64,000 nucleotides of DNA from an uncultured delta proteobacterium (GCA_963696385.1 CAVOKF010000005.1:736001-800000); one strand, 5' to 3'; counted from the stretch's first letter, positions 379 to 8,004 are shown. The notes: generated by a model from the sequence alone, not told the origin. Made by a program: numbers and translations.

Positions 379-486
379 TGTAGACGGACGCGTAAATCCG
401 CGGGAAAGGCGACGTGGAAGCAGTGCGCCGCCGATCCCGGCGCTACCTCCTGAGGAAGGCGGCGCCGGGCAGCGGACGAGAATGGC

Positions 487-780
487 TCAGCGAGGGAGGG
501 GCTTGTCGTGGTGGTTGTGGTCACGCCCGTCGACGACGTTCTGCTCGGCGAGTCGATATTGGCGGATATGCCTGCGTAAAGCGCGCATGGCATTGAGGAG
601 GTCGCGAGTGGGGGGATGATTGGCGCCGCCGCGTGTCGACGAGGAGGGGTCGAGGCCGATGGCGAGAAAGCGGCGAGCCGCGATGAGTGCAGCGTCGAGC
701 ACGAAGAGCGGACCGAGTTCGGGCGCCAAGACGATGTCCCACTCGGAGGGCGCAACGAGCCGCTGGCGCGGCGGCGTCAC
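487..780 (-). CDS. Small helical hypothetical protein (97 aa), last gene of the IS
   Basis: GTG 780 overlaps the istB stop (GTGA coupling); MTPPRQRLVAPSEWDIVLAPELGPLFVLDAALIAARRFL...LLNAMRALRRHIRQYRLAEQ; lies inside the IS ends. Confidence 0.7.
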   Translation of the reverse strand: MTPPRQRLVAPSEWDIVLAPELGPLFVLDAALIAARRFLAIGLDPSSSTRGGANHPPTRDLLNAMRALRRHIRQYRLAEQNVVDGRDHNHHDKPLPR

Positions 781-1562
781 ACGCGCCTCCGGGCGGAGGC
801 GCCTCGCGAGCGGGGCCTGGGTTGCGGAGGCGGTGGGGAGTTGCCCGGCTTTTGCCGGTAGGAGTCGGCATCGATGTCGATGGTGTGCAGATGCTGGGTG
901 AAGCGATCGATGAGAGCGACGAGGCAGGCGGCGCCGGGGAATACGCCCCCCCATTCCTTGAAGGCCAAGTTGGTCGAGATGATGGTGGAGGCTCGTTCAT
1001 GGCGCCGGCTGATGATCTGGAAGAAGAGGTCGACGGCGCGCTTGTCTACGGGCACATATCCAAGTTCGTCGCATACGAGAAGATCGACATTGGTATAGCG
1101 CTTCATGCGTCGCTCGACGGCGGGCAGCGACTCCTGTTTCAAGAGATCGGCGAGCGCCGAAACGACCGGGGTAAAGCAGACGGTCATGCCGGCGCTGAGC
1201 GCGGCGAGGCATACGTTCTGCGCAAGCATGGTCTTACCCACACCGCTTGGGCCGCGAAAAAGGACGTTCTCGCGGCGCTCCACGAAGCCCAAGCCGAGGA
1301 CATTCTCGCATAGGGCGCGGTCGATCTTGCGCGGATGGCTCCAGTCGAAACGGTCCATCGTCGTGTGCGCCCCCACCGTCGCCATCTTGGTGCGGGTGGC
1401 GAGATTGCGTGCTTCACGCTGCCGGCGCTCCATTTCGACCAGCAGCTCGACGACCTGCACGTGCGAGAGGCGGTTGGCGGTCGCGTGCGACAGCAGTGCC
1501 TCGAGCTGCTCGCGCGACGCGCAGAAGCCGATGGCCCGGAGCTCGTCGACGACGTCGCTCAC
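777..1562 (-). CDS. istB: IS21-family helper AAA+ ATPase IstB
   Basis: Walker A GPSGVGKT, Walker B LLVCDELGY, STIISTNLAFKEWG, ALIDRFTQH, SYR; directly downstream of istA. Confidence 0.96.
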   Translation of the reverse strand: MSDVVDELRAIGFCASREQLEALLSHATANRLSHVQVVELLVEMERRQREARNLATRTKMATVGAHTTMDRFDWSHPRKIDRALCENVLGLGFVERRENVLFRGPSGVGKTMLAQNVCLAALSAGMTVCFTPVVSALADLLKQESLPAVERRMKRYTNVDLLVCDELGYVPVDKRAVDLFFQIISRRHERASTIISTNLAFKEWGGVFPGAACLVALIDRFTQHLHTIDIDADSYRQKPGNSPPPPQPRPRSRGASARRRV

Positions 1563-4050
1563 GACTCACCCCGCTTTCGGTCGTAGGAACCGAGGTCGTG
1601 GGGCACCACGATGGCGTCGACGACGTGCGCGCCGAGCACGATATCCACCGGCATGGGCCGGTCGGTTCGCTGCCGCTCTTGCTCGCAGAGAAGGGCCAGC
1701 GCGCCGATGTCGTGCGTGCCGCGCTCGCCCATGACGCGCACGGCGTAACCGAAGATCTCCAGCCCGTAGAGTGTGAAGAGCTTGCGCGCATGCCCGGTCA
1801 TGAAGTTGATGTTTCGTCCCTGCTCGACCCAGCGTTCGTAAAGCACCGAGAGCTCGGGCACGGCGCCGAGCAGCTGGTCGCGTATCGTGATGGCCTCGGC
1901 TCGTGGCCGCCCCTCGCAGAGGGCGCGGCGATGCGCGGGGTCGTCGATGCGCTGACCGCGTCCCCACGAGCGTCGGTGGCGCGCCACCTCTTTCTCCCCA
2001 TCGAGAAGCCGCACGTGATCGTCGTCCGCCACGAGCGTCAGCGTCGCGCTCGCGTACTTCGGCGGCGCCGAGTAGCGGTTGGTCCCGAGCCGTACGCTCG
2101 CCGTCTTGTCGACGGCGACAGGCAACACCAGGTCCGCCGTCGGCATCGGATTGGGCAGCGGCATCAGGCGCTCCTTCTCCTCGGCGAAGACCTCGCCCAC
2201 GCTGCGGCTGGCGAGGGTTGGGTGGCGACGCGTCATCACGACCGATTCGATGTGGCGCCGCAGGCCGAGGTTTCCTATCTCCAGACTCGGGATCGAACGG
2301 CCCGCGAAGAATCCTTCTTTGAGCTCGCGTATGGCTCTTTCGACTCCGCCCTTGTCTTCGGGCGTCCGCACGCGCGCGAGCACTGGTTTGACGCGAAGCT
2401 GTCCGGCGAGCTCGATGATCCCGGAGTGAAGCCGCGCGGCGCGACCATGGCGCTCGATCACGACGATCTTGGGGTTGTCGAAGAGAAGCTGCCGTGGCAC
2501 GCCACCGAAGAAGCTCAGCGCGCGCAGGATCGAGCGCCGGAGCGATTCCGCCGTCATATCGAGCACCGACTCCGCGTACCGCATTCGCGAATACGCCAAA
2601 AGCATCACGAAGACCCAGAGCGCCCGCATCCCTCCCATGACGGAGAGCTGCCCCACGTGACCCCAGTCCACTTGCCCTTGCTCGCCCGGCAGGCGCTCGC
2701 AGACCAGGTACGCCTTGCTCGCCGCGCGCGGACGGATGCCTTTGACGAAGCGCTCGACGAGCTTTGCGCTGCCCCGAAACCCGCGCTCGGCGATCATCGT
2801 GCGCAGCCGCGTCGCGCGCAGCCGTGGATACCTCTCGATCTGCTCGAGGATGAAGCCCTTGTACGCGTCGAGCTTGCTCGGCCGAGGCTCGCGCGCGGGC
2901 TGTCCAGTGGCGTCCTCTTCAGCGGCGCCCTCGTTGTGACCCACCCCGCGGCGGGATCGTGAGCCAGGGGGGCCGGTGAACGGTGGCCCTCTGGCGGCGT
3001 GATCGTGATCCACCTGGTTGCCCAATAGCAAGCCGTCGAATAGGGCCGGCGCGGGCTCGGGCACGCGCTCTGCATCGAGCCTCTTGCGACCCAATGAAGT
3101 GCATAGCCATGATCGCAGCGCGAGGAGCGGGGCCGTGTTGCCGCGTGTTGCCACGTGGCAACGCCAGGCCGGTGCACGGCGCCCTTCCAGGTGTGCACGA
3201 CCCCAGCGAGCGACGAGCTCGTTCGTCGGCTGCGAGTGGTCGTGGCATGCGACGTGCGTGAGCAAATTCCATATTTTATGAAGCAATATCCAATACATAG
3301 ATAGCCCTCCCGCCGCCACCCGGTCGGCCCGTCGAGAGTCGCAGTCGATCTGCCGTTTGCTTCACGAGCACACGCTGCGGCCCAGCCCTTGCCGCGCGTT
3401 GGAGGTGTTGGCGAATCGACGTTCGAACAGGCCATCTTCGACGTTGACGTCGGCCTCGTGCGGCGCGGTTGCCCTTGTTCTTGACGGAGCCAGCGCGCAA
3501 GGGCTTGCGCTCGGGATTCTAGAGTCAGCGTGCAGCGCGGCTCGGCACTGCCGGGCGCGCGGGTGCGCAGAGTCCTACCGGCGTCTTGCTTCGGGGCTCC
3601 CACTGCCGAGGCTCTCGCGACGCTGTCAGCGCCCTCGCGATCGGATCACTCTCGCGATCCAAGTAGACCGATTTCGAGAGAAGCGACGACGACCAATCTC
3701 CGAGCGCGCACGAAAGCGAGCCGCGATGACGGCTACGCGGGAACGGCTCCGGCTGCGAAAGTCAATGCGCGTATCCCACCGACCGGACCCGGCCGTCCAC
3801 CGCTGACCTTGGCGGTAGACGGGTGGGTCACGATCCCGCCGCCGCCGGCGTTGCGCTGGGACCATGACGTGGATCACGAGAACGCCCGGAAGTGGATCAC
3901 TTTAAAGGCGCCGCTGAAGGCGTCCTGGGCGAGCACGCGCGTGACGACGTCGTGGTGCACCCCCAGCTCGGCGGCCACCGTGCCTTCGGGCCACTTCTCG
4001 GCCTGCACGAGCCGAAGGATCTCGCTCTCGCACTCTTTGCTGACTGTCAT
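1559..4050 (-). pseudogene. istA: IS21-family DDE transposase IstA, interrupted by a nested element (restored length 493 aa)
   Basis: N-terminal HTH MTVSKECESEILRLVQAEKWPEGTVAAELGVHHDVVTRVLAQDA at 4050-3920; the rest (RPSKLDAYK, PGEQGQVDWG, LFDN, KGGVERAI) at 2909-1559; the parts join in frame (1482 nt). Confidence 0.93.
2917..3919. mobile_element. Non-autonomous MITE-like element with IS21-type multi-repeat ends and no transposase
   Basis: Perfect 13-bp inverted repeats CTTCAGCGGCGCC / GGCGCCGCTGAAG; 7-bp duplication GCGTCCT at 2910-2916 and 3920-3926; three GTGA(T/C/G)CCA-type subterminal repeats at each end. Confidence 0.9.
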
Positions 4051-4421
4051 GGCGACACCCCCTGCAAGCAGACCTGCCGCAGATCACCGAAGCAGCCCAA
4101 TCCCCCCAGACGGCCCGCGCGACGGCGATGCGCCGGACCGCGCAGCATCACCTCCACGTCGAAATGCAGATTGCGCACGCCGAAGCCCAGCGCGTCCTCC
4201 AGCCGCAATGCAGACATAGATTCCTCGGTATCCGCACAGAGAACAACGCAGAGCGGGCGCTGCTGCCAGAGCGCCAGCCCCTCGAGCAGCGTGGAGGCCG
4301 CCCGCGGATGCGCCGACGCCGATGGGCCCAACACCGCCCGCATCCGTTCCTCGCGCCCCTCCATCATCAGGATCCGCGTCGCCTCGCGCCGGGGATCCAT
4401 CGTCACCGTCCATCGATTCAT
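4047..4421 (-). CDS. IS-associated hypothetical protein (124 aa) directly upstream of istA
   Basis: ATG 4421 with AGGAG upstream; stop overlaps the istA ATG (ATGA); globular sequence HPRAASTLLEGLALWQQRPLCVVLCAD...GCFGDLRQV. Confidence 0.75.
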   Translation of the reverse strand: MNRWTVTMDPRREATRILMMEGREERMRAVLGPSASAHPRAASTLLEGLALWQQRPLCVVLCADTEESMSALRLEDALGFGVRNLHFDVEVMLRGPAHRRRAGRLGGLGCFGDLRQVCLQGVSP

Positions 4422-4875
4422 CGGTCCTGCTCCTGGCCGCCTCGGTCGCCGCCTCCGGGTTGGAGGCGAGCGCCGCGCCGCGCGAGCGCACAACACGCGA
4501 ATCGGCACTCCCACCAGAAGGGGGATCCGTTACGACCTGCCCATCCGTTCCCGGCGCGACCGGCGCCACCACGCCCCGCTGCCGAGCCTTGCGGCCTCGC
4601 CGGCCCGGATGTGCTTGGCGAAACCAGTGCTGCCGGTCGCGGTTGTTCTGCCGACCCTCCACCGTCGTCGCTTCCAACCGCCGCGCCGTGCGACAGATCC
4701 GCGCGCGCCCTACCCCTTGGCACGCCTCGCTGCAGTAGCGGCGCTCGCCGAACCAATCGCACCTGGCGCACGCGTAGAACCCCTCGCCGCAGGCCCCACA
4801 GCACGCAAAACGAAGCGGCTGCTCGACTCCCTCATGCTCGTGCACGCGTCCATTCCACGGACGCGTGATGCGCAC
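4084..4875 (-). CDS. Cys-rich zinc-finger-like protein, first gene of the IS (start uncertain)
   Basis: CGAC-x6-CARCD-x6-YCSEAC followed by a basic helix, plus a C-terminal RCSLCG; paralog at 6381-6743. Confidence 0.7.
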   Translation of the reverse strand: MRITRPWNGRVHEHEGVEQPLRFACCGACGEGFYACARCDWFGERRYCSEACQGVGRARICRTARRLEATTVEGRQNNRDRQHWFRQAHPGRRGRKARQRGVVAPVAPGTDGQVVTDPPSGGSADSRVVRSRGAALASNPEAATEAARSRTDESMDGDDGSPARGDADPDDGGARGTDAGGVGPIGVGASAGGLHAARGAGALAAAPALRCSLCGYRGIYVCIAAGGRAGLRRAQSAFRRGGDAARSGASPSRGPSGGIGLLR

Positions 4876-4941
4876 GGGTTGACCCGGCGCTTGCTCTCAG
4901 GCACCGTCCGCGGCGTCCAGAGCCGCGTCCGCGTCTGGGCC

Positions 4942-4979
4942 GAAGGCTCGGGGTTGCCGCCCTGGGCCTTCACTCTTTT
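4942..4979 (+). terminator. Intrinsic-terminator-like hairpin in the IS leader
   Basis: GAAGGCTCGGGGT-TGCC-GCCCTGGGCCTTC, a 13-bp stem with three G-U pairs on the + strand, followed by ACTCTTTT. Confidence 0.55.
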
Positions 4980-5103
4980 GTGCGTCCATTTCGTCGCGCC
5001 TTCTACGCCAGCACGCGCGCCGACACGAGCGGGGACCCTTCCCGCCGGCTCTCACGCAAGAGGATGGCCTTTGCGACCCGTCCTGAACGAATGCTCGGGC
5101 GTC

Positions 5104-5460
5104 CTACGCCCTGACGCGTCCCGGATCAGGCGGTTCTTCGCGTCGCTCTACAAGCGCCTTGTCCCATTGCTTGGAGATCTGGTCCAGGTGCCGCTGCGCC
5201 TCCTGCAGGCGGCGTGGCTGAAGCTCCCAGACGCTCTCGCGTCCCTCGCGCATGCCCCGCACCACGCCCGCCTTGGCGAGGACCCGCAAGTGCCGCGTGA
5301 TGGCCTGGCGCGTGACGTCGGTCCCCGCCGTCAGCCGCGTGATGGACAGCGGGCCTTGCTCGCACAGCCGGGCGACGAGCCCGAGGCGCGTCCGATCGCC
5401 CAGCGCCCCGAACAAGGGCGCCGCCGTCTTCAGCGCCCGTGCCCCGCTGCTACGCGGCAT
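5104..5460 (-). pseudogene. ArsR/SmtB-family HTH regulator, C-terminus replaced by IS sequence
   Basis: FGALGDRTRLGLVARL...ITRLTAGTDVTRQAITRHLRVLAKAGVV...GRESVWEL; IS sequence starts at 5152 and supplies a foreign tail. Confidence 0.88.
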
Positions 5461-5944
5461 GTGAGAGATACTTTTCGATGAGCTTGGCTTGATGAGTCCA
5501 CCCTCCCTCGTTGGCGGTGAACGCCTGAGCCCGGCGGGCCAGCGGGATGCCGTCGAAGCCGGATTCGGTGATGGTCAGCAGGGTGGCGCCCTCGACCTCC
5601 TCCAACTCGAAAACGACCAGGGTGGTGGGCTCGCTCGAATAGTCCACGGCGGGATCGATGGCGAAAGGGTGCCAGCGAAACGAAAAGAGCCGCGCCGGTT
5701 CAAGGCGGTCGACCGTGATCTCGAAGGGCTTCCCTTCATGGGGCTTCTGGAGCTTGGCCACCTCTTCGTCGACGGTGGTCGGAACGATCCTTCCGGTCAT
5801 GCGAGCGCCCGCGACGAAAGGTCCGTCGAAGGCCACGCCGAACCAGGCCCCGAACTGCCGCGCGTCGCTCACCGCACGCCACACCCGCCCCAGCGGTGCT
5901 CGAAGCAAGACCTTCTTCTCGATGCGATCCTTGTCGGTCGCCAT
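5450..5944 (-). CDS. SRPBCC/AHSA1-like (START fold) protein
   Basis: DRIEKKVLLRAPLGRVWRAVSD..FGAWFG, FSFRWHP, TLLTITESGFD, NEGGW; typical pairing with ArsR. Confidence 0.92.
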   Translation of the reverse strand: MATDKDRIEKKVLLRAPLGRVWRAVSDARQFGAWFGVAFDGPFVAGARMTGRIVPTTVDEEVAKLQKPHEGKPFEITVDRLEPARLFSFRWHPFAIDPAVDYSSEPTTLVVFELEEVEGATLLTITESGFDGIPLARRAQAFTANEGGWTHQAKLIEKYLSHAA

Positions 5945-5945
5945 G

Positions 5946-6009
5946 TGCAACCTCCTTGTTGCATGTTTCGATAGCGGCGCACCACGCGACATGCAACCAC
6001 AATGTTGCG
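5946..6009. promoter_or_regulatory. Two palindromic operators TGCAAC-N6-GTTGC(A/G) upstream of the SRPBCC-arsR operon
   Basis: TGCAACCTCCTTGTTGCA (5946-5963, covers the RBS) and TGCAACCACAATGTTGCG (5992-6009). Confidence 0.7.
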
Positions 6010-6061
6010 TCATGGTGGCGAAGCAACGCCGAGAGGTGCCGCTGGGACGATGAAATGCCGA

Positions 6062-6265
6062 TCAGCCGCTTCGCTTTTGCTTGGAGTGGGTCGCGTGCTC
6101 AGGCTGCTTGCTCCACCACTGCTCCAGCACGTCCGTGATGATCGCGTTTAGCGAGACGCCCCTGTCAATCGAAAGGTGCCGCAAAGCTGTGTGAAGGTCC
6201 TTTGGAAGCCGAAGCATTAGTCCCTGCCGCCCATCCTCCGCCGGTTCGCTCTTCTTCGCTGCCAC
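6062..6265 (-). CDS. Ribbon-helix-helix (Arc/CopG-like) DNA-binding protein
   Basis: GLMLRLPKDLHTALRHLSIDRGVSLNAIITDVLEQW has the beta-alpha-alpha RHH pattern. Confidence 0.85.
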   Translation of the reverse strand: MAAKKSEPAEDGRQGLMLRLPKDLHTALRHLSIDRGVSLNAIITDVLEQWWSKQPEHATHSKQKRSG

Positions 6266-6380
6266 GACCGTCGTCGTACACGAACCATGGCGGCTTGACA
6301 GTGTGATATCACGACATCAAGATACAACTGCGGAGAGGTTTCGCTCAAGATGAGCCGCGAAAGCACGGCGGGCAAGCAGA

Positions 6381-6743
6381 TCAGCGTCCGAGAAGGGTTC
6401 GACATGGTCGCGGCTGTCGTCGAGTGCCCGAAAAGAGCCAGATCTTGCGTCGACGGGGCGCAAGAAGGGGGAGAACTTCGGGCAAAGCCGCGGCTCGATA
6501 TTGTTCCACGCCTCGGAATGACCACAACGCTTCGCCGCCGCGACGGCGAGCGCGCAGCTCACGCATGGCGGCCCGATGATCCGCTCGCCCCTCCGGGCTG
6601 CGCTGGTGACGGGCACGGGCCTCGCGCCGGCTCCGGGCGCGGCCGCGCGACCGGCATGCCTCACCGCAGTACGCGTGACCTCGATCGCAGCAACGGCAGA
6701 TGAAGAAGACGGTTCTGCACCACGCGCACGGACGCATCCGCAA
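6381..6743 (-). pseudogene. Second Cys-rich zinc-finger-like gene, probably truncated near 6530
   Basis: CAWC-x6-CRCCDRGHAYCGEAC...RARHQRSPEGRADHR resembles 4084-4875; similarity ends after RELRARRR. Confidence 0.7.
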
Positions 6744-6797
6744 CGCGTCTTGGTCGTCTCGGGAAGGATGTCGCCGAACGAGCTCGATTCAAGATCG

Positions 6798-7322
6798 TTA
6801 CTGCGGATCGCGAAGCAGTGCGGGCGCCGGCCGATCCGGATCGAGCCGACGGATCGCCTTGACCAGCCGCGCGCGGCAACAGTCGCAGTAGTGGCCCTCG
6901 CCTAGCTCGTTCATCAGCATGACCGCCCGGCGGTACTGTTCTGCCGCGACGTCGCCCGAACCTCTCGCCTCGTGCACCTGACCGAGCCGCTCGATTGCCA
7001 GAGGCTCGTGGGGATATTCCGACTCGAGCTGGCGAGCTGTCGCCTCGGCCTCGTCGTACTGCCCGGCGTCGATCTGTTCGAGCACCCGCTCGGCGAGCCC
7101 GTCGACTTCATCCAACGCCCGCGACTCCTGCAAAACCTCCCGCGCCCGCTCCAGCACCGCCGCGGCGACCGTGGGCCCTCCGTCCACTTCCGCAGCCTGT
7201 CGCTCGCTCTCCGCTCTTAGCCGTTCTGCCCGCTCCTCAGCCTCCACTCGTTCGAGACAGCATCGCTTGAACTTCTTGCCGCTGCCGCACGGGCACGGAT
7301 CGTTGCGTCCGACCTTGGCCAT
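6798..7322 (-). CDS. SEC-C motif protein with TPR-like helices and a C-terminal YCDCC
   Basis: [28 protein letters not shown] upstream. Confidence 0.88.
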
Positions 7323-7408
7323 CGCCCGGTGCTCCTACCCGATCTCCAACCGGACTGCACTGGCCGGCAATTCGTTCATGTTCCGCCGCTTCTTCGCGAG
7401 CGCGGACA

Positions 7409-8004
7409 CTCCTGACGTCCTTTGGAACAAGGGCGTCATTCTCGTTCGGCGCTCGCACACGCTCGGATGCGAAATCATGGACATGACGAAGACGAAGCTT
7501 GATCAGCGCATCAGCGTGCCCGCTGATGTCGTTGCCGTGCTTCAGTGGCACCTCGATACGCAGCTCACGACGTCCGAGCAGCAGGCGGCTGAGCTTCTCT
7601 TCCCATCGAAGGCTGGCACGTTCCGTTCGGAGTCGTCCCTCAAAAAGCCGTTCGCCGCGGTGTGCGAGGCGATCGGGCTAACGCAGCACTTCACGCCGCG
7701 CGGCTTACGCAGAACGTTCAACGATCTGGCCCGTCGCGCGAAGGTGAGTTCTCTTGTCACGAAGAGCATCTCCGGTCATGCCACCGATCGGATGGAGGAA
7801 CATTATTCGACGGTGAGCGAGACGGAGCAGCGCAACGGCATTGAAGCGCTGCTGCAACGGGTGAAGCCGATCCTGCCGACGGAGGATGCGGACCGTGACG
7901 GCTTGGCGACCCGCGAGGGCGGTACGCCGCCCAGCCAAGTGGGTGCTCCGCTGGGTGCTCCTGGGGGAGGAGTGGGTGCTCCAGACGGGAGCGACCTTCA
8001 CTAA
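7409..8004 (+). pseudogene. Tyrosine recombinase/integrase, C-terminal fragment only
   Basis: TKT, LLFPS, TPRGLRRTF (HxxR box variant), SGH, HY catalytic motifs; no box-I Arg or N-terminal domains; lies next to a tRNA. Confidence 0.85.
7938..7982 (+). repeat. Three direct TGGGTGCTCC repeats, candidate integrase arm-type sites
   Basis: Copies at 7940-7949, 7952-7961 and 7973-7982, 50-90 bp from the tRNA 3' end. Confidence 0.6.

Follow-up and report, generated by a model that had tools for sequence, protein, structure and literature searches.

The locus described here raises a plain question: what are three additional genes doing between the ends of an insertion sequence (IS) of the IS21 family, and are they part of its machinery or cargo? 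The element, carried by a soil myxobacterium, occupies positions 379-5152 of a 64,000-nt stretch of DNA from an uncultured delta proteobacterium (GCA_963696385.1, CAVOKF010000005.1:736001-800000); ‘the window’ refers below to this whole stretch. In PMC10122671, IS21 members are described with two open reading frames (ORFs) only, in agreement with the original prediction that canonical elements carry just istA and istB. The window element contains five genes on one strand, the last four of them chained by ATGA or GTGA stop/start overlaps, an arrangement predicted earlier and confirmed in the sequence. Taken as a whole, the analysis suggests that the element probably belongs to a distinct and largely unannotated IS21 subgroup, in which a translationally coupled operon includes accessory genes specific to the element. 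The element, its genes, a leader hairpin and a nested insert are as follows.

379-5152, genes on the minus strand: IS21-family element, bounded by inverted ends (TG..CA) and flanked by a duplication of 6 bp.
4942-4981, plus strand (antisense to the genes): conserved hairpin and T-run, about 70 nt upstream of the putative start of the zinc-type gene, found in a terminator-like scan.
4084-4875, minus strand: zinc-type protein gene, 263 amino acids (aa), upstream of istA; the putative start is the first GTG, at 4875.
4047-4421, minus strand: 124-aa gene, out of frame within the zinc-type gene, with AGGAG 8 nt before its ATG.
3919-4050, minus strand: 5′ part of istA, codons 1-44; its ATG, at 4050, lies within the ATGA overlap with the 124-aa gene.
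2917-3918, no strand assigned: nested, non-autonomous insert of 1002 bp; its ends read CTTCAGCGGCGCC.., and GGCGTCCT is duplicated (8 bp) on either side, at 2909-2916 and 3919-3926.
1559-2916, minus strand: 3′ part of istA, codons 45-493 of the intact gene, with rve and Mu-transpos_C_2 matches.
777-1562, minus strand: istB, coding for an AAA+ helper ATPase of 261 aa (PF01695 at E 5e-53).
487-780, minus strand: 97-aa gene, preceded by GGAGG at a distance of 5 nt; it starts with the GTG of a GTGA overlap that also contains the istB stop.

The core genes are those of the IS21 family. The intact 493-aa IstA (L002:2680-4161) scored 208.4 bits against NF033546 (cut-off 160) and IstB 203.9 bits against NF038214 (cut-off 200), both in excess of the curated NCBIfam cut-offs. 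As in the canonical elements (IS21, IS5376, IS100, ISKpn7 type), an IstA DDE transposase is followed directly by its AAA+ helper IstB, stop and start codons overlap, and TG..CA ends with repeated subterminal motifs are accompanied by a short target duplication. The window element differs from the canonical ones in its size (3.76 kb) and in having five conserved genes between its ends. It therefore departs from the two-ORF description, while its transposase-based classification is unaffected. In the annotation tables of three canonical plasmid examples, no zinc-type gene is given upstream of istA. The stop/start overlaps are ATGA at 4047-4050 (124-aa gene and istA) and GTGA at 1559-1562 (istA and istB) and at 777-780 (istB and 97-aa gene). 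A read-through of the single stop lying between the zinc-type gene and istA, which share a frame in the window, was considered as a means of fusing the two proteins; it was rejected, because the layout is explained by coupling through termination and reinitiation, and because the two genes do not share a frame in some of the relatives.

The three additional ORFs are real, conserved genes that belong to no Pfam or NCBIfam family. In the product of the first, the zinc-type protein, a disordered linker joins an N-terminal six-cysteine domain, which includes a strongly basic helical hairpin, to a C-terminal CxxCG encoded within the overlap with the 124-aa gene. Eight cysteines are conserved in an alignment of 21 sequences (alignment A2); C26, C29, C36, C48, C52, C211 and C214 are invariant, as is Y47, and C39 is absent from three sequences of one clade, the same three that have an extra cysteine directly before C211. 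An unpublished genome, G010, accounts for one row each in alignments A2 and A5 and for one locus in the homologue and linkage counts given below; none of the conclusions rests on it. The basic stretch RHQRS.EGR.DHRDR..YR is also conserved, the acidic linker is variable, and a basic tail follows C214. The predicted model is confident at residues 20-100, where two long helices accompany a small zinc ribbon, moderate at about 211-223 and disordered elsewhere. The six N-terminal and two C-terminal cysteines would suffice for two Zn(Cys)4 sites, and we infer that the protein binds zinc. Comparison with PDB sequences gave nothing significant, and the ESM Atlas yielded unnamed clusters only. NinG (PF05766) matched two of the 21 members (best E 0.0088) and zf-MYND three (E 0.1 or worse), neither reaching its curated cut-off; the family-library rows at E 0.01-1 were weak zinc-ribbon, MYND and NinG matches only.

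The second gene codes for 124 aa in a frame that shows the codon-position GC pattern of this genome's genes. Homologues were present in 14 of 41 related genomes, often in many copies. A large protein collection yielded 133 of them, all unnamed, and an exhaustive profile search found 646 clusters at 50% identity, nearly all of about 120 aa; no clear domain fusion was seen among the seven longer hits inspected. A tblastn search of the plasmid collection with the 124-aa protein gave no match. The original prediction had proposed that linkage to istA be checked, and the linkage proved strong: the 124-aa gene lay immediately upstream of an IstA homologue in 19/20, 11/12 and 19/22 fetched loci, in sets that include several copies per genome and in which six loci are counted twice. 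Of the five exceptions, three were truncated copies or fragments, one was due to the end of a contig, and one had been cut by an IS66-type insertion. This linkage persists down to about 30% IstA identity, and in one more branch this slot is taken by a very divergent member of the family (hhalign probability 93.8%).

The zinc-type ORF continues through the 124-aa gene in another frame, producing an overlap of about 335 nt. Within it, each of the two C-terminal cysteine codons of the zinc-type frame begins with the third base of a codon of the 124-aa gene (codon 59 or 62) and is completed by the next two bases. Both wobble bases were T in 31 of 31 distinct homologues, the background of T at third positions being 11.6%; the homologues are related by descent, so this count is not a probability. 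Residue 62 of the 124-aa protein varies (C, S, Y, V, L or A, with codons TGT, TCT, TAT, GTT, CTT and GCT), yet its codon is NNT in every case, which keeps a TGY cysteine codon in the zinc-type frame. Since the wobble T is conserved even though the residue varies, the aligned sequences indicate that both overlapping frames are under selection. The nested pair is a clean example, provided by nature, of dual coding over a long out-of-frame stretch, in which selection on both frames leaves a simple signature.

Further relatives reveal how widely this organization extends. Of 301 genomes sampled across the phylum, 39 contained the N-terminal zinc-type domain (34 of 208 genera). At 30 zinc-domain loci across the phylum, an IstA homologue was found just downstream in 23; two of the remaining loci had a ParB-like gene followed by the end of the locus, three could not be judged, and two showed no IstA within the 1-1.5 kb of sequence at hand. 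Three-gene forms also occur among the relatives; in these, a zinc-type gene of 140-190 aa ends at most about 25 nt from the istA start or overlaps it. Among plasmid records the zinc-type protein matched only 11, against 3933 with an IstA match. The closest plasmid IstA relatives (37-40% identity) are betaproteobacterial, and the three of these elements that were inspected (Aromatoleum aromaticum EbN1 NC_006823, Cupriavidus sp. P-10 pMTS3 and Burkholderia thailandensis p2002721643) all contain a homologue of the zinc-type ORF that extends up to the istA start, with no coding sequence recorded for it in the (incomplete) gene table of PLSDB. The nested 124-aa gene is lacking from these betaproteobacterial elements. 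In an IstA tree rooted on three canonical IS21-family outgroups, all elements bearing the zinc-type gene fell on one side (Shimodaira-Hasegawa-like approximate likelihood ratio test, 91), and the lineages with the nested gene included the deepest branch and were interspersed with three-gene forms. This was a quick tree, whose root and several forks are weak and in which the 97-aa gene is labelled only for contigs reaching past istB; its topology fits an old nested pair with repeated loss. As judged from these comparisons, the zinc-type and 124-aa genes are dedicated to the element and co-evolve with IstA.

The third gene, located after istB, behaves differently. It shows a coding-like codon-position GC pattern, and its 97-aa product has 30 homologues (57-94% identity), in which a core of 75 aa is conserved and the acidic tail varies; searches of Pfam, NCBIfam, PHROGs and PDB sequences gave no match. 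In a relative from genome G012 the homologous gene is ATGA-coupled to istB. There is no room for the gene in two complete relatives, the 3248-bp element of G005 and the 3365-bp element of G008; it is therefore a real but optional, lineage-restricted addition found in one sub-branch only. The original prediction had proposed that all the extra ORFs are dedicated components rather than cargo, and had asked whether close relatives lack them. The linkage to istA upholds this proposal for the zinc-type and 124-aa genes; the absence of the 97-aa gene from the G005 and G008 elements makes the case for the third weaker.

Small ORFs in the same place are known from other elements. The three betaproteobacterial plasmid elements carry a 68-71-aa ‘hypothetical protein’ (RefSeq) gene that overlaps the istB stop by 4 nt. 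The possibility that the 97-aa protein corresponds to these proteins, or to the post-istB ORF of a second IS21 type described below, was examined and rejected, the similarity not being significant (hhalign probability 0.7-1.7% for the plasmid proteins). In the ISKpn7 region of a Klebsiella pneumoniae plasmid (L123), RefSeq likewise has a 79-aa ‘hypothetical protein’ overlapping the istB stop by 4 nt, so that small post-istB ORFs may be more general in the IS21 family. In addition, a 168-aa database protein (P0151) passes directly from the IstB C-terminus into the 97-aa protein before a frameshift sets in, and represents a degenerate copy or else a variant fused to IstB. No account of additional IS21 genes was found in the full-text literature, a search that did not cover ISfinder. 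The system had been put forward as undescribed, which agrees with the lack of a published description and has to be tempered by the RefSeq annotation of the small post-istB ORF in plasmids.

The leader of the operon contains a further conserved feature. The hairpin at 4942-4981 was also found in 15 other lineages, 104-126 nt upstream of the first cysteine codon. The 16-sequence alignment predicts 11 base pairs, six of them with compensatory changes, and includes 17 G-U cells that are equivalent to A-C mismatches on the sense strand, which identifies the antisense strand as the one that folds. This suggests that the hairpin is the terminator of an antisense RNA running over the leader; the RNA-OUT of IS10 is a comparable antisense RNA. 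An 87-aa upstream ORF at 4710-4973 was considered as a gene, given its coding-like GC pattern, and was discarded because its apparent conservation is explained by the conserved nucleotides of the hairpin.

These observations can be brought together in one explanation, which we regard as probable when taken as a whole: the accessory proteins control the expression or the assembly of the transposase. The zinc-type gene would be the core accessory gene; it always overlaps the istA start or stops no more than a few tens of bases away from it. In the myxobacterial branch a second gene, for the 124-aa protein, lies in another frame within the part encoding the linker and C-terminus of the zinc-type protein, and one sub-branch has added the 97-aa gene, coupled to the istB stop. 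On a single leftward-end transcript, ribosomes would reach istA only after translating the zinc-type or the nested gene; because they pass through the accessory genes in this way, the transposase would be made together with the accessory proteins and limited by them. The zinc-type protein may bind nucleic acid, either at the element ends or in the transposase complex, and could act as a regulator or assembly factor in the manner of InsA of IS1 or OrfA of the IS3 family. The 124-aa protein may be a non-catalytic partner of IstA, and the antisense RNA from the leader could damp expression. InsA, a zinc-finger protein, and OrfA are small nucleic-acid-binding proteins encoded on the 5′ side of the transposase, in an overlapping or coupled arrangement, and limit transposition. 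The zinc-type protein is not known to have any sequence relationship with them, and in contrast to those systems there is no sign here of a programmed frameshift fusion, the downstream partner being a complete IstA with its own N-terminal helix-turn-helix.

Several results weigh against this explanation. The zinc-type protein had no significant match to a Pfam or NCBIfam family, and none to any DNA-binding family; about half of its model is of low confidence, and fold searches with it gave nothing above Z 4.8 or below E 2. The zinc-type gene is frameshifted near codon 60-70 in one of the four copies in this genome (G000:C7:242245-246009), and a copy in a sister genome (L051/L065, 96-98% identical) is likewise frameshifted, so the gene can decay. 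A promoter scan found no sigma-70-type promoter on either strand. The metatranscriptome assemblies of two studies (X1 and X2) speak for the mobility of the element: it is found there at mostly 95-99% identity, with the nested insert missing and position 2908 joined to 3919, which shows that the intact form is present in other samples; being contigs from RNA libraries, they are informative on presence only, and not on transcription, strand or level. In the X1 assembly, and in short pieces with 100% identity in X4, different sequences flank the element ends; X3 contained short pieces of the element only. To the points against should be added the complete relatives lacking the 97-aa gene mentioned above, and two features of the 124-aa protein, its structural scores and its conserved acidic and histidine residues, which bear on the first of the alternatives.

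According to that alternative, the 124-aa protein would itself be a catalytically active nuclease, of the RuvC or YqgF type, that cuts the strand left by IstA, or resolves a branched intermediate, in analogy to TnsA, which gives Tn7 its cut-and-paste transposition. An AlphaFold model based on a 30-sequence alignment (predicted local distance difference test score 76) points to an RNase H-like fold, with the order beta-beta-beta-alpha-beta-alpha-beta-alpha. The top row of a VIA-align search with this model was pantothenate kinase (Z 9.4). The other neighbours included YqgF/RuvX, RuvC, poxvirus resolvase, Cas9 RuvC domains and an IS110-type recombinase, at Z 7.8-8.9, as well as a phage terminase nuclease domain; Holliday-junction resolvases and RuvC domains (Z 7-9) are among the best of them; according to the tool, matches in the range of Z 8-9.4 are common for models without true relatives. 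The predicted topology fits RuvC, YqgF/RuvX and poxvirus resolvase (Z 8.2-8.9 over 109-117 aligned residues), and the conserved residues E47, D64, D76, H86 and D113 make a catalytic role possible. In contrast to those enzymes, the position of the first catalytic Asp is not conserved: position 9, at the end of strand 1, is D, E, A, S or V in the 30 aligned sequences. Further, the protein matched neither RuvC, YqgF nor any other nuclease family in Pfam, NCBIfam or PDB sequences, and many relatives work without the gene. The nuclease alternative is thus unlikely. As the first catalytic Asp is not conserved, the model is better read as that of an RNase H-fold protein that is probably non-catalytic.

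The original prediction drew a loose analogy with TniQ, proposing that the extra proteins select the target. In its fuller form, the zinc-type protein would recognize a feature of the DNA or of a protein and pass it on to IstB and IstA. The comparison has some appeal, since in Tn7-like and Tn5053-like elements TniQ is likewise an extra cysteine-containing protein encoded beside a DDE transposase (TnsB) and an AAA+ regulator (TnsC), and the linkage of the accessory genes to istAB is strict. Against this, the zinc-type protein has no match to TniQ or to any other Pfam or NCBIfam family, and nine insertion sites (four in this genome, three in G008 and two in G005) had no sequence in common, in what is a small sample compatible with a structural preference. 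The duplications at these sites, of 5-8 bp, are typical of untargeted IS21 insertion, and the copies lie in unrelated contexts. Target selection by the accessory proteins is therefore quite unlikely.

A third possibility is that the extra genes are selfish or host-directed passengers, such as an addiction module or a defence or counter-defence function. The accessory proteins contain no known transposition domain, the 97-aa gene is optional, and a second IS21 type in the same genome has a ParB-like gene in the corresponding slot, all of which would agree with cargo. However, the zinc-type and 124-aa genes are almost never found away from IstA, the exceptions being truncated copies, and their translational coupling to istA is maintained across lineages with only about 30% IstA identity. 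At E 0.01, neither the 124-aa, the 97-aa nor the window zinc-type protein matched PHROGs, in a comparison that did not cover PADLOC; two relatives of the zinc-type protein matched PHROGs only weakly. We consider it very unlikely that the genes are passengers.

Finally, that the overlapped part of the zinc-type ORF is untranslated, its frame being open merely through high G+C, is highly improbable: the codon-position GC pattern of the overlap, which tracks the 124-aa and not the zinc-type frame, the mostly disordered prediction for the overlapped segment and the rarity with which gene callers report the long form (two full-length proteins on record) are outweighed by the T at both wobble positions, by the C-terminal CxxC and basic tail that relatives without the nested gene retain, and by a zinc-type frame that is open in nearly all intact relatives and stops at or near the same TGA.

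Returning to the control of the transposase by the accessory proteins, a bolder version can be formulated, which we advance tentatively and to which we would give somewhat less than an even chance. In this version, the two-frame gene pair would be ancient and would constitute a required accessory module of a large IS21 subgroup; the zinc sites would be closed by a CxxC encoded inside the RNase H-fold gene, and both products, together with the antisense RNA, would set the amount or the activity of IstA-IstB. If true, IS21 transposition in these lineages would be a four- or five-protein system, in contrast to the two-protein structural model. IS21 serves as a model for the control of a DDE transposase by an AAA+ ATPase, and descriptions of it give two genes. 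In a subgroup that is widespread in myxobacteria and betaproteobacteria, at least one more conserved protein is encoded, which has mostly escaped annotation, so that the control of transposition in this subgroup is probably richer than in the model. Annotation could gain three protein families: the zinc-type family, the 124-aa family of predicted RNase H fold with its 646 clusters at 50% identity, and the 97-aa family.

The limits of the window element could be defined precisely. Its ends and the sequences flanking them are the following.

373-378: target-site duplication AGCGCC, left copy, repeated at 5153-5158.
379-425, minus strand: terminal inverted repeat of the istB-distal end (TGTAGACGGACGCG..), with a second GACG(C/T)G motif inside.
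5108-5152, minus strand: terminal inverted repeat of the gene-proximal end (TGTAGAGCGACGCG.. on the minus strand), with a second GACGCG motif.
5153-5158: target-site duplication AGCGCC, right copy, repeated at 373-378.
5153-5460, minus strand: 5′ part of a disrupted arsR-type regulator gene, whose frame rejoins across the element.

Both ends open with TGTAGA and contain repeated GACGCG motifs (TGTAGACGGACGCG.. at 379 and, in reverse complement, TGTAGAGCGACGCG.. at 5152). The insertion severed the last 12 codons and the stop of the arsR-type gene, now at 342-378; joining the flanks restores an ArsR-type ORF with the C-terminus ..WDKALDRLRALVEA*. In the Pfam scan, the ORF at 5104-5460, which holds the 5′ part of this gene, matched HTH_20 and HTH_5. 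The inverted ends beginning with TG, the AGCGCC duplication and the rejoining of arsR, all noted in the original prediction, were seen again in the sequence. Further support came from the host genome, which has three more copies, uninterrupted, of 3763-3765 bp and about 100% identical to the window element. The four copies occupy unrelated contexts, share an identical TGTAGACGGACGCG end and each bear their own 6-bp duplication (GGCGCT, AGGTGG, TCCCCT and GGTGAG), which places the ends and the mobility of the element beyond chance. The stretch at 379-5152 is thus a genuine IS21-family mobile element. Upstream of the disrupted arsR, on the same strand and overlapping it by 11 nt, lies a 187-aa ORF (5450-6013, minus strand) whose translation, read by eye, has an SRPBCC/Aha1-type look; proteins of this type are common partners of ArsR.

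The insert at 2917-3918 splits the window istA after codon 44. For this reason the window copy is dead: it is unable to produce IstA, and would depend on an intact copy acting in trans. Removal of the 1002 bp yields the 3764-bp element that the original prediction had reconstructed, and the other three copies in the genome do not have the insert. A duplication of GGCGCC (6 bp), in the middle of a palindrome, was considered as the junction of the insert and ruled out, the true junction being the 8-bp GGCGTCCT. A separate copy of the insert is present on contig C2 (G000:C2:55519-56536). The ends of the insert, of about 95 bp, are around 80% identical to those of several 4.5-kb IS21-type elements of the same genome that encode distant IstA and IstB proteins (25-30% identity), so the insert is a small non-autonomous derivative of this second IS21 type.

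A representative of the 4.5-kb type (locus L087, G000:C4:1129700-1135200, with the element at about 495-4987) belongs to a set of at least seven copies in the genome. It has five genes, for a 156-aa cysteine-rich protein, a ParB-like protein (HTH_ParB), IstA, IstB and a tail ORF. The cysteine-rich protein is related to the zinc-type domain (hhalign probability 80%), and this relative, at L087:644-1114, scored 23.4 bits against NinG, just under the cut-off of 25.4. The tail ORF ends in ..DDNTF and in this resembles the small post-istB proteins of the plasmid elements.

A stand-alone ORF elsewhere in the window (6381-6743, minus strand) belongs to the zinc-type domain family over its first 68 residues (hhalign probability 99.5%). 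A near-twin, at G000:C4:158299-158541, lies beside IstA fragments, and the window ORF is for this reason probably the remnant of a third, decayed element. Around it, at 6062-8004, the translations were labelled by eye as a ribbon-helix-helix-like ORF (6062-6265), a SEC-C-motif protein (6798-7322) and an ORF with a tyrosine-integrase C-terminal signature (7171-8004), a combination that suggests an old island.

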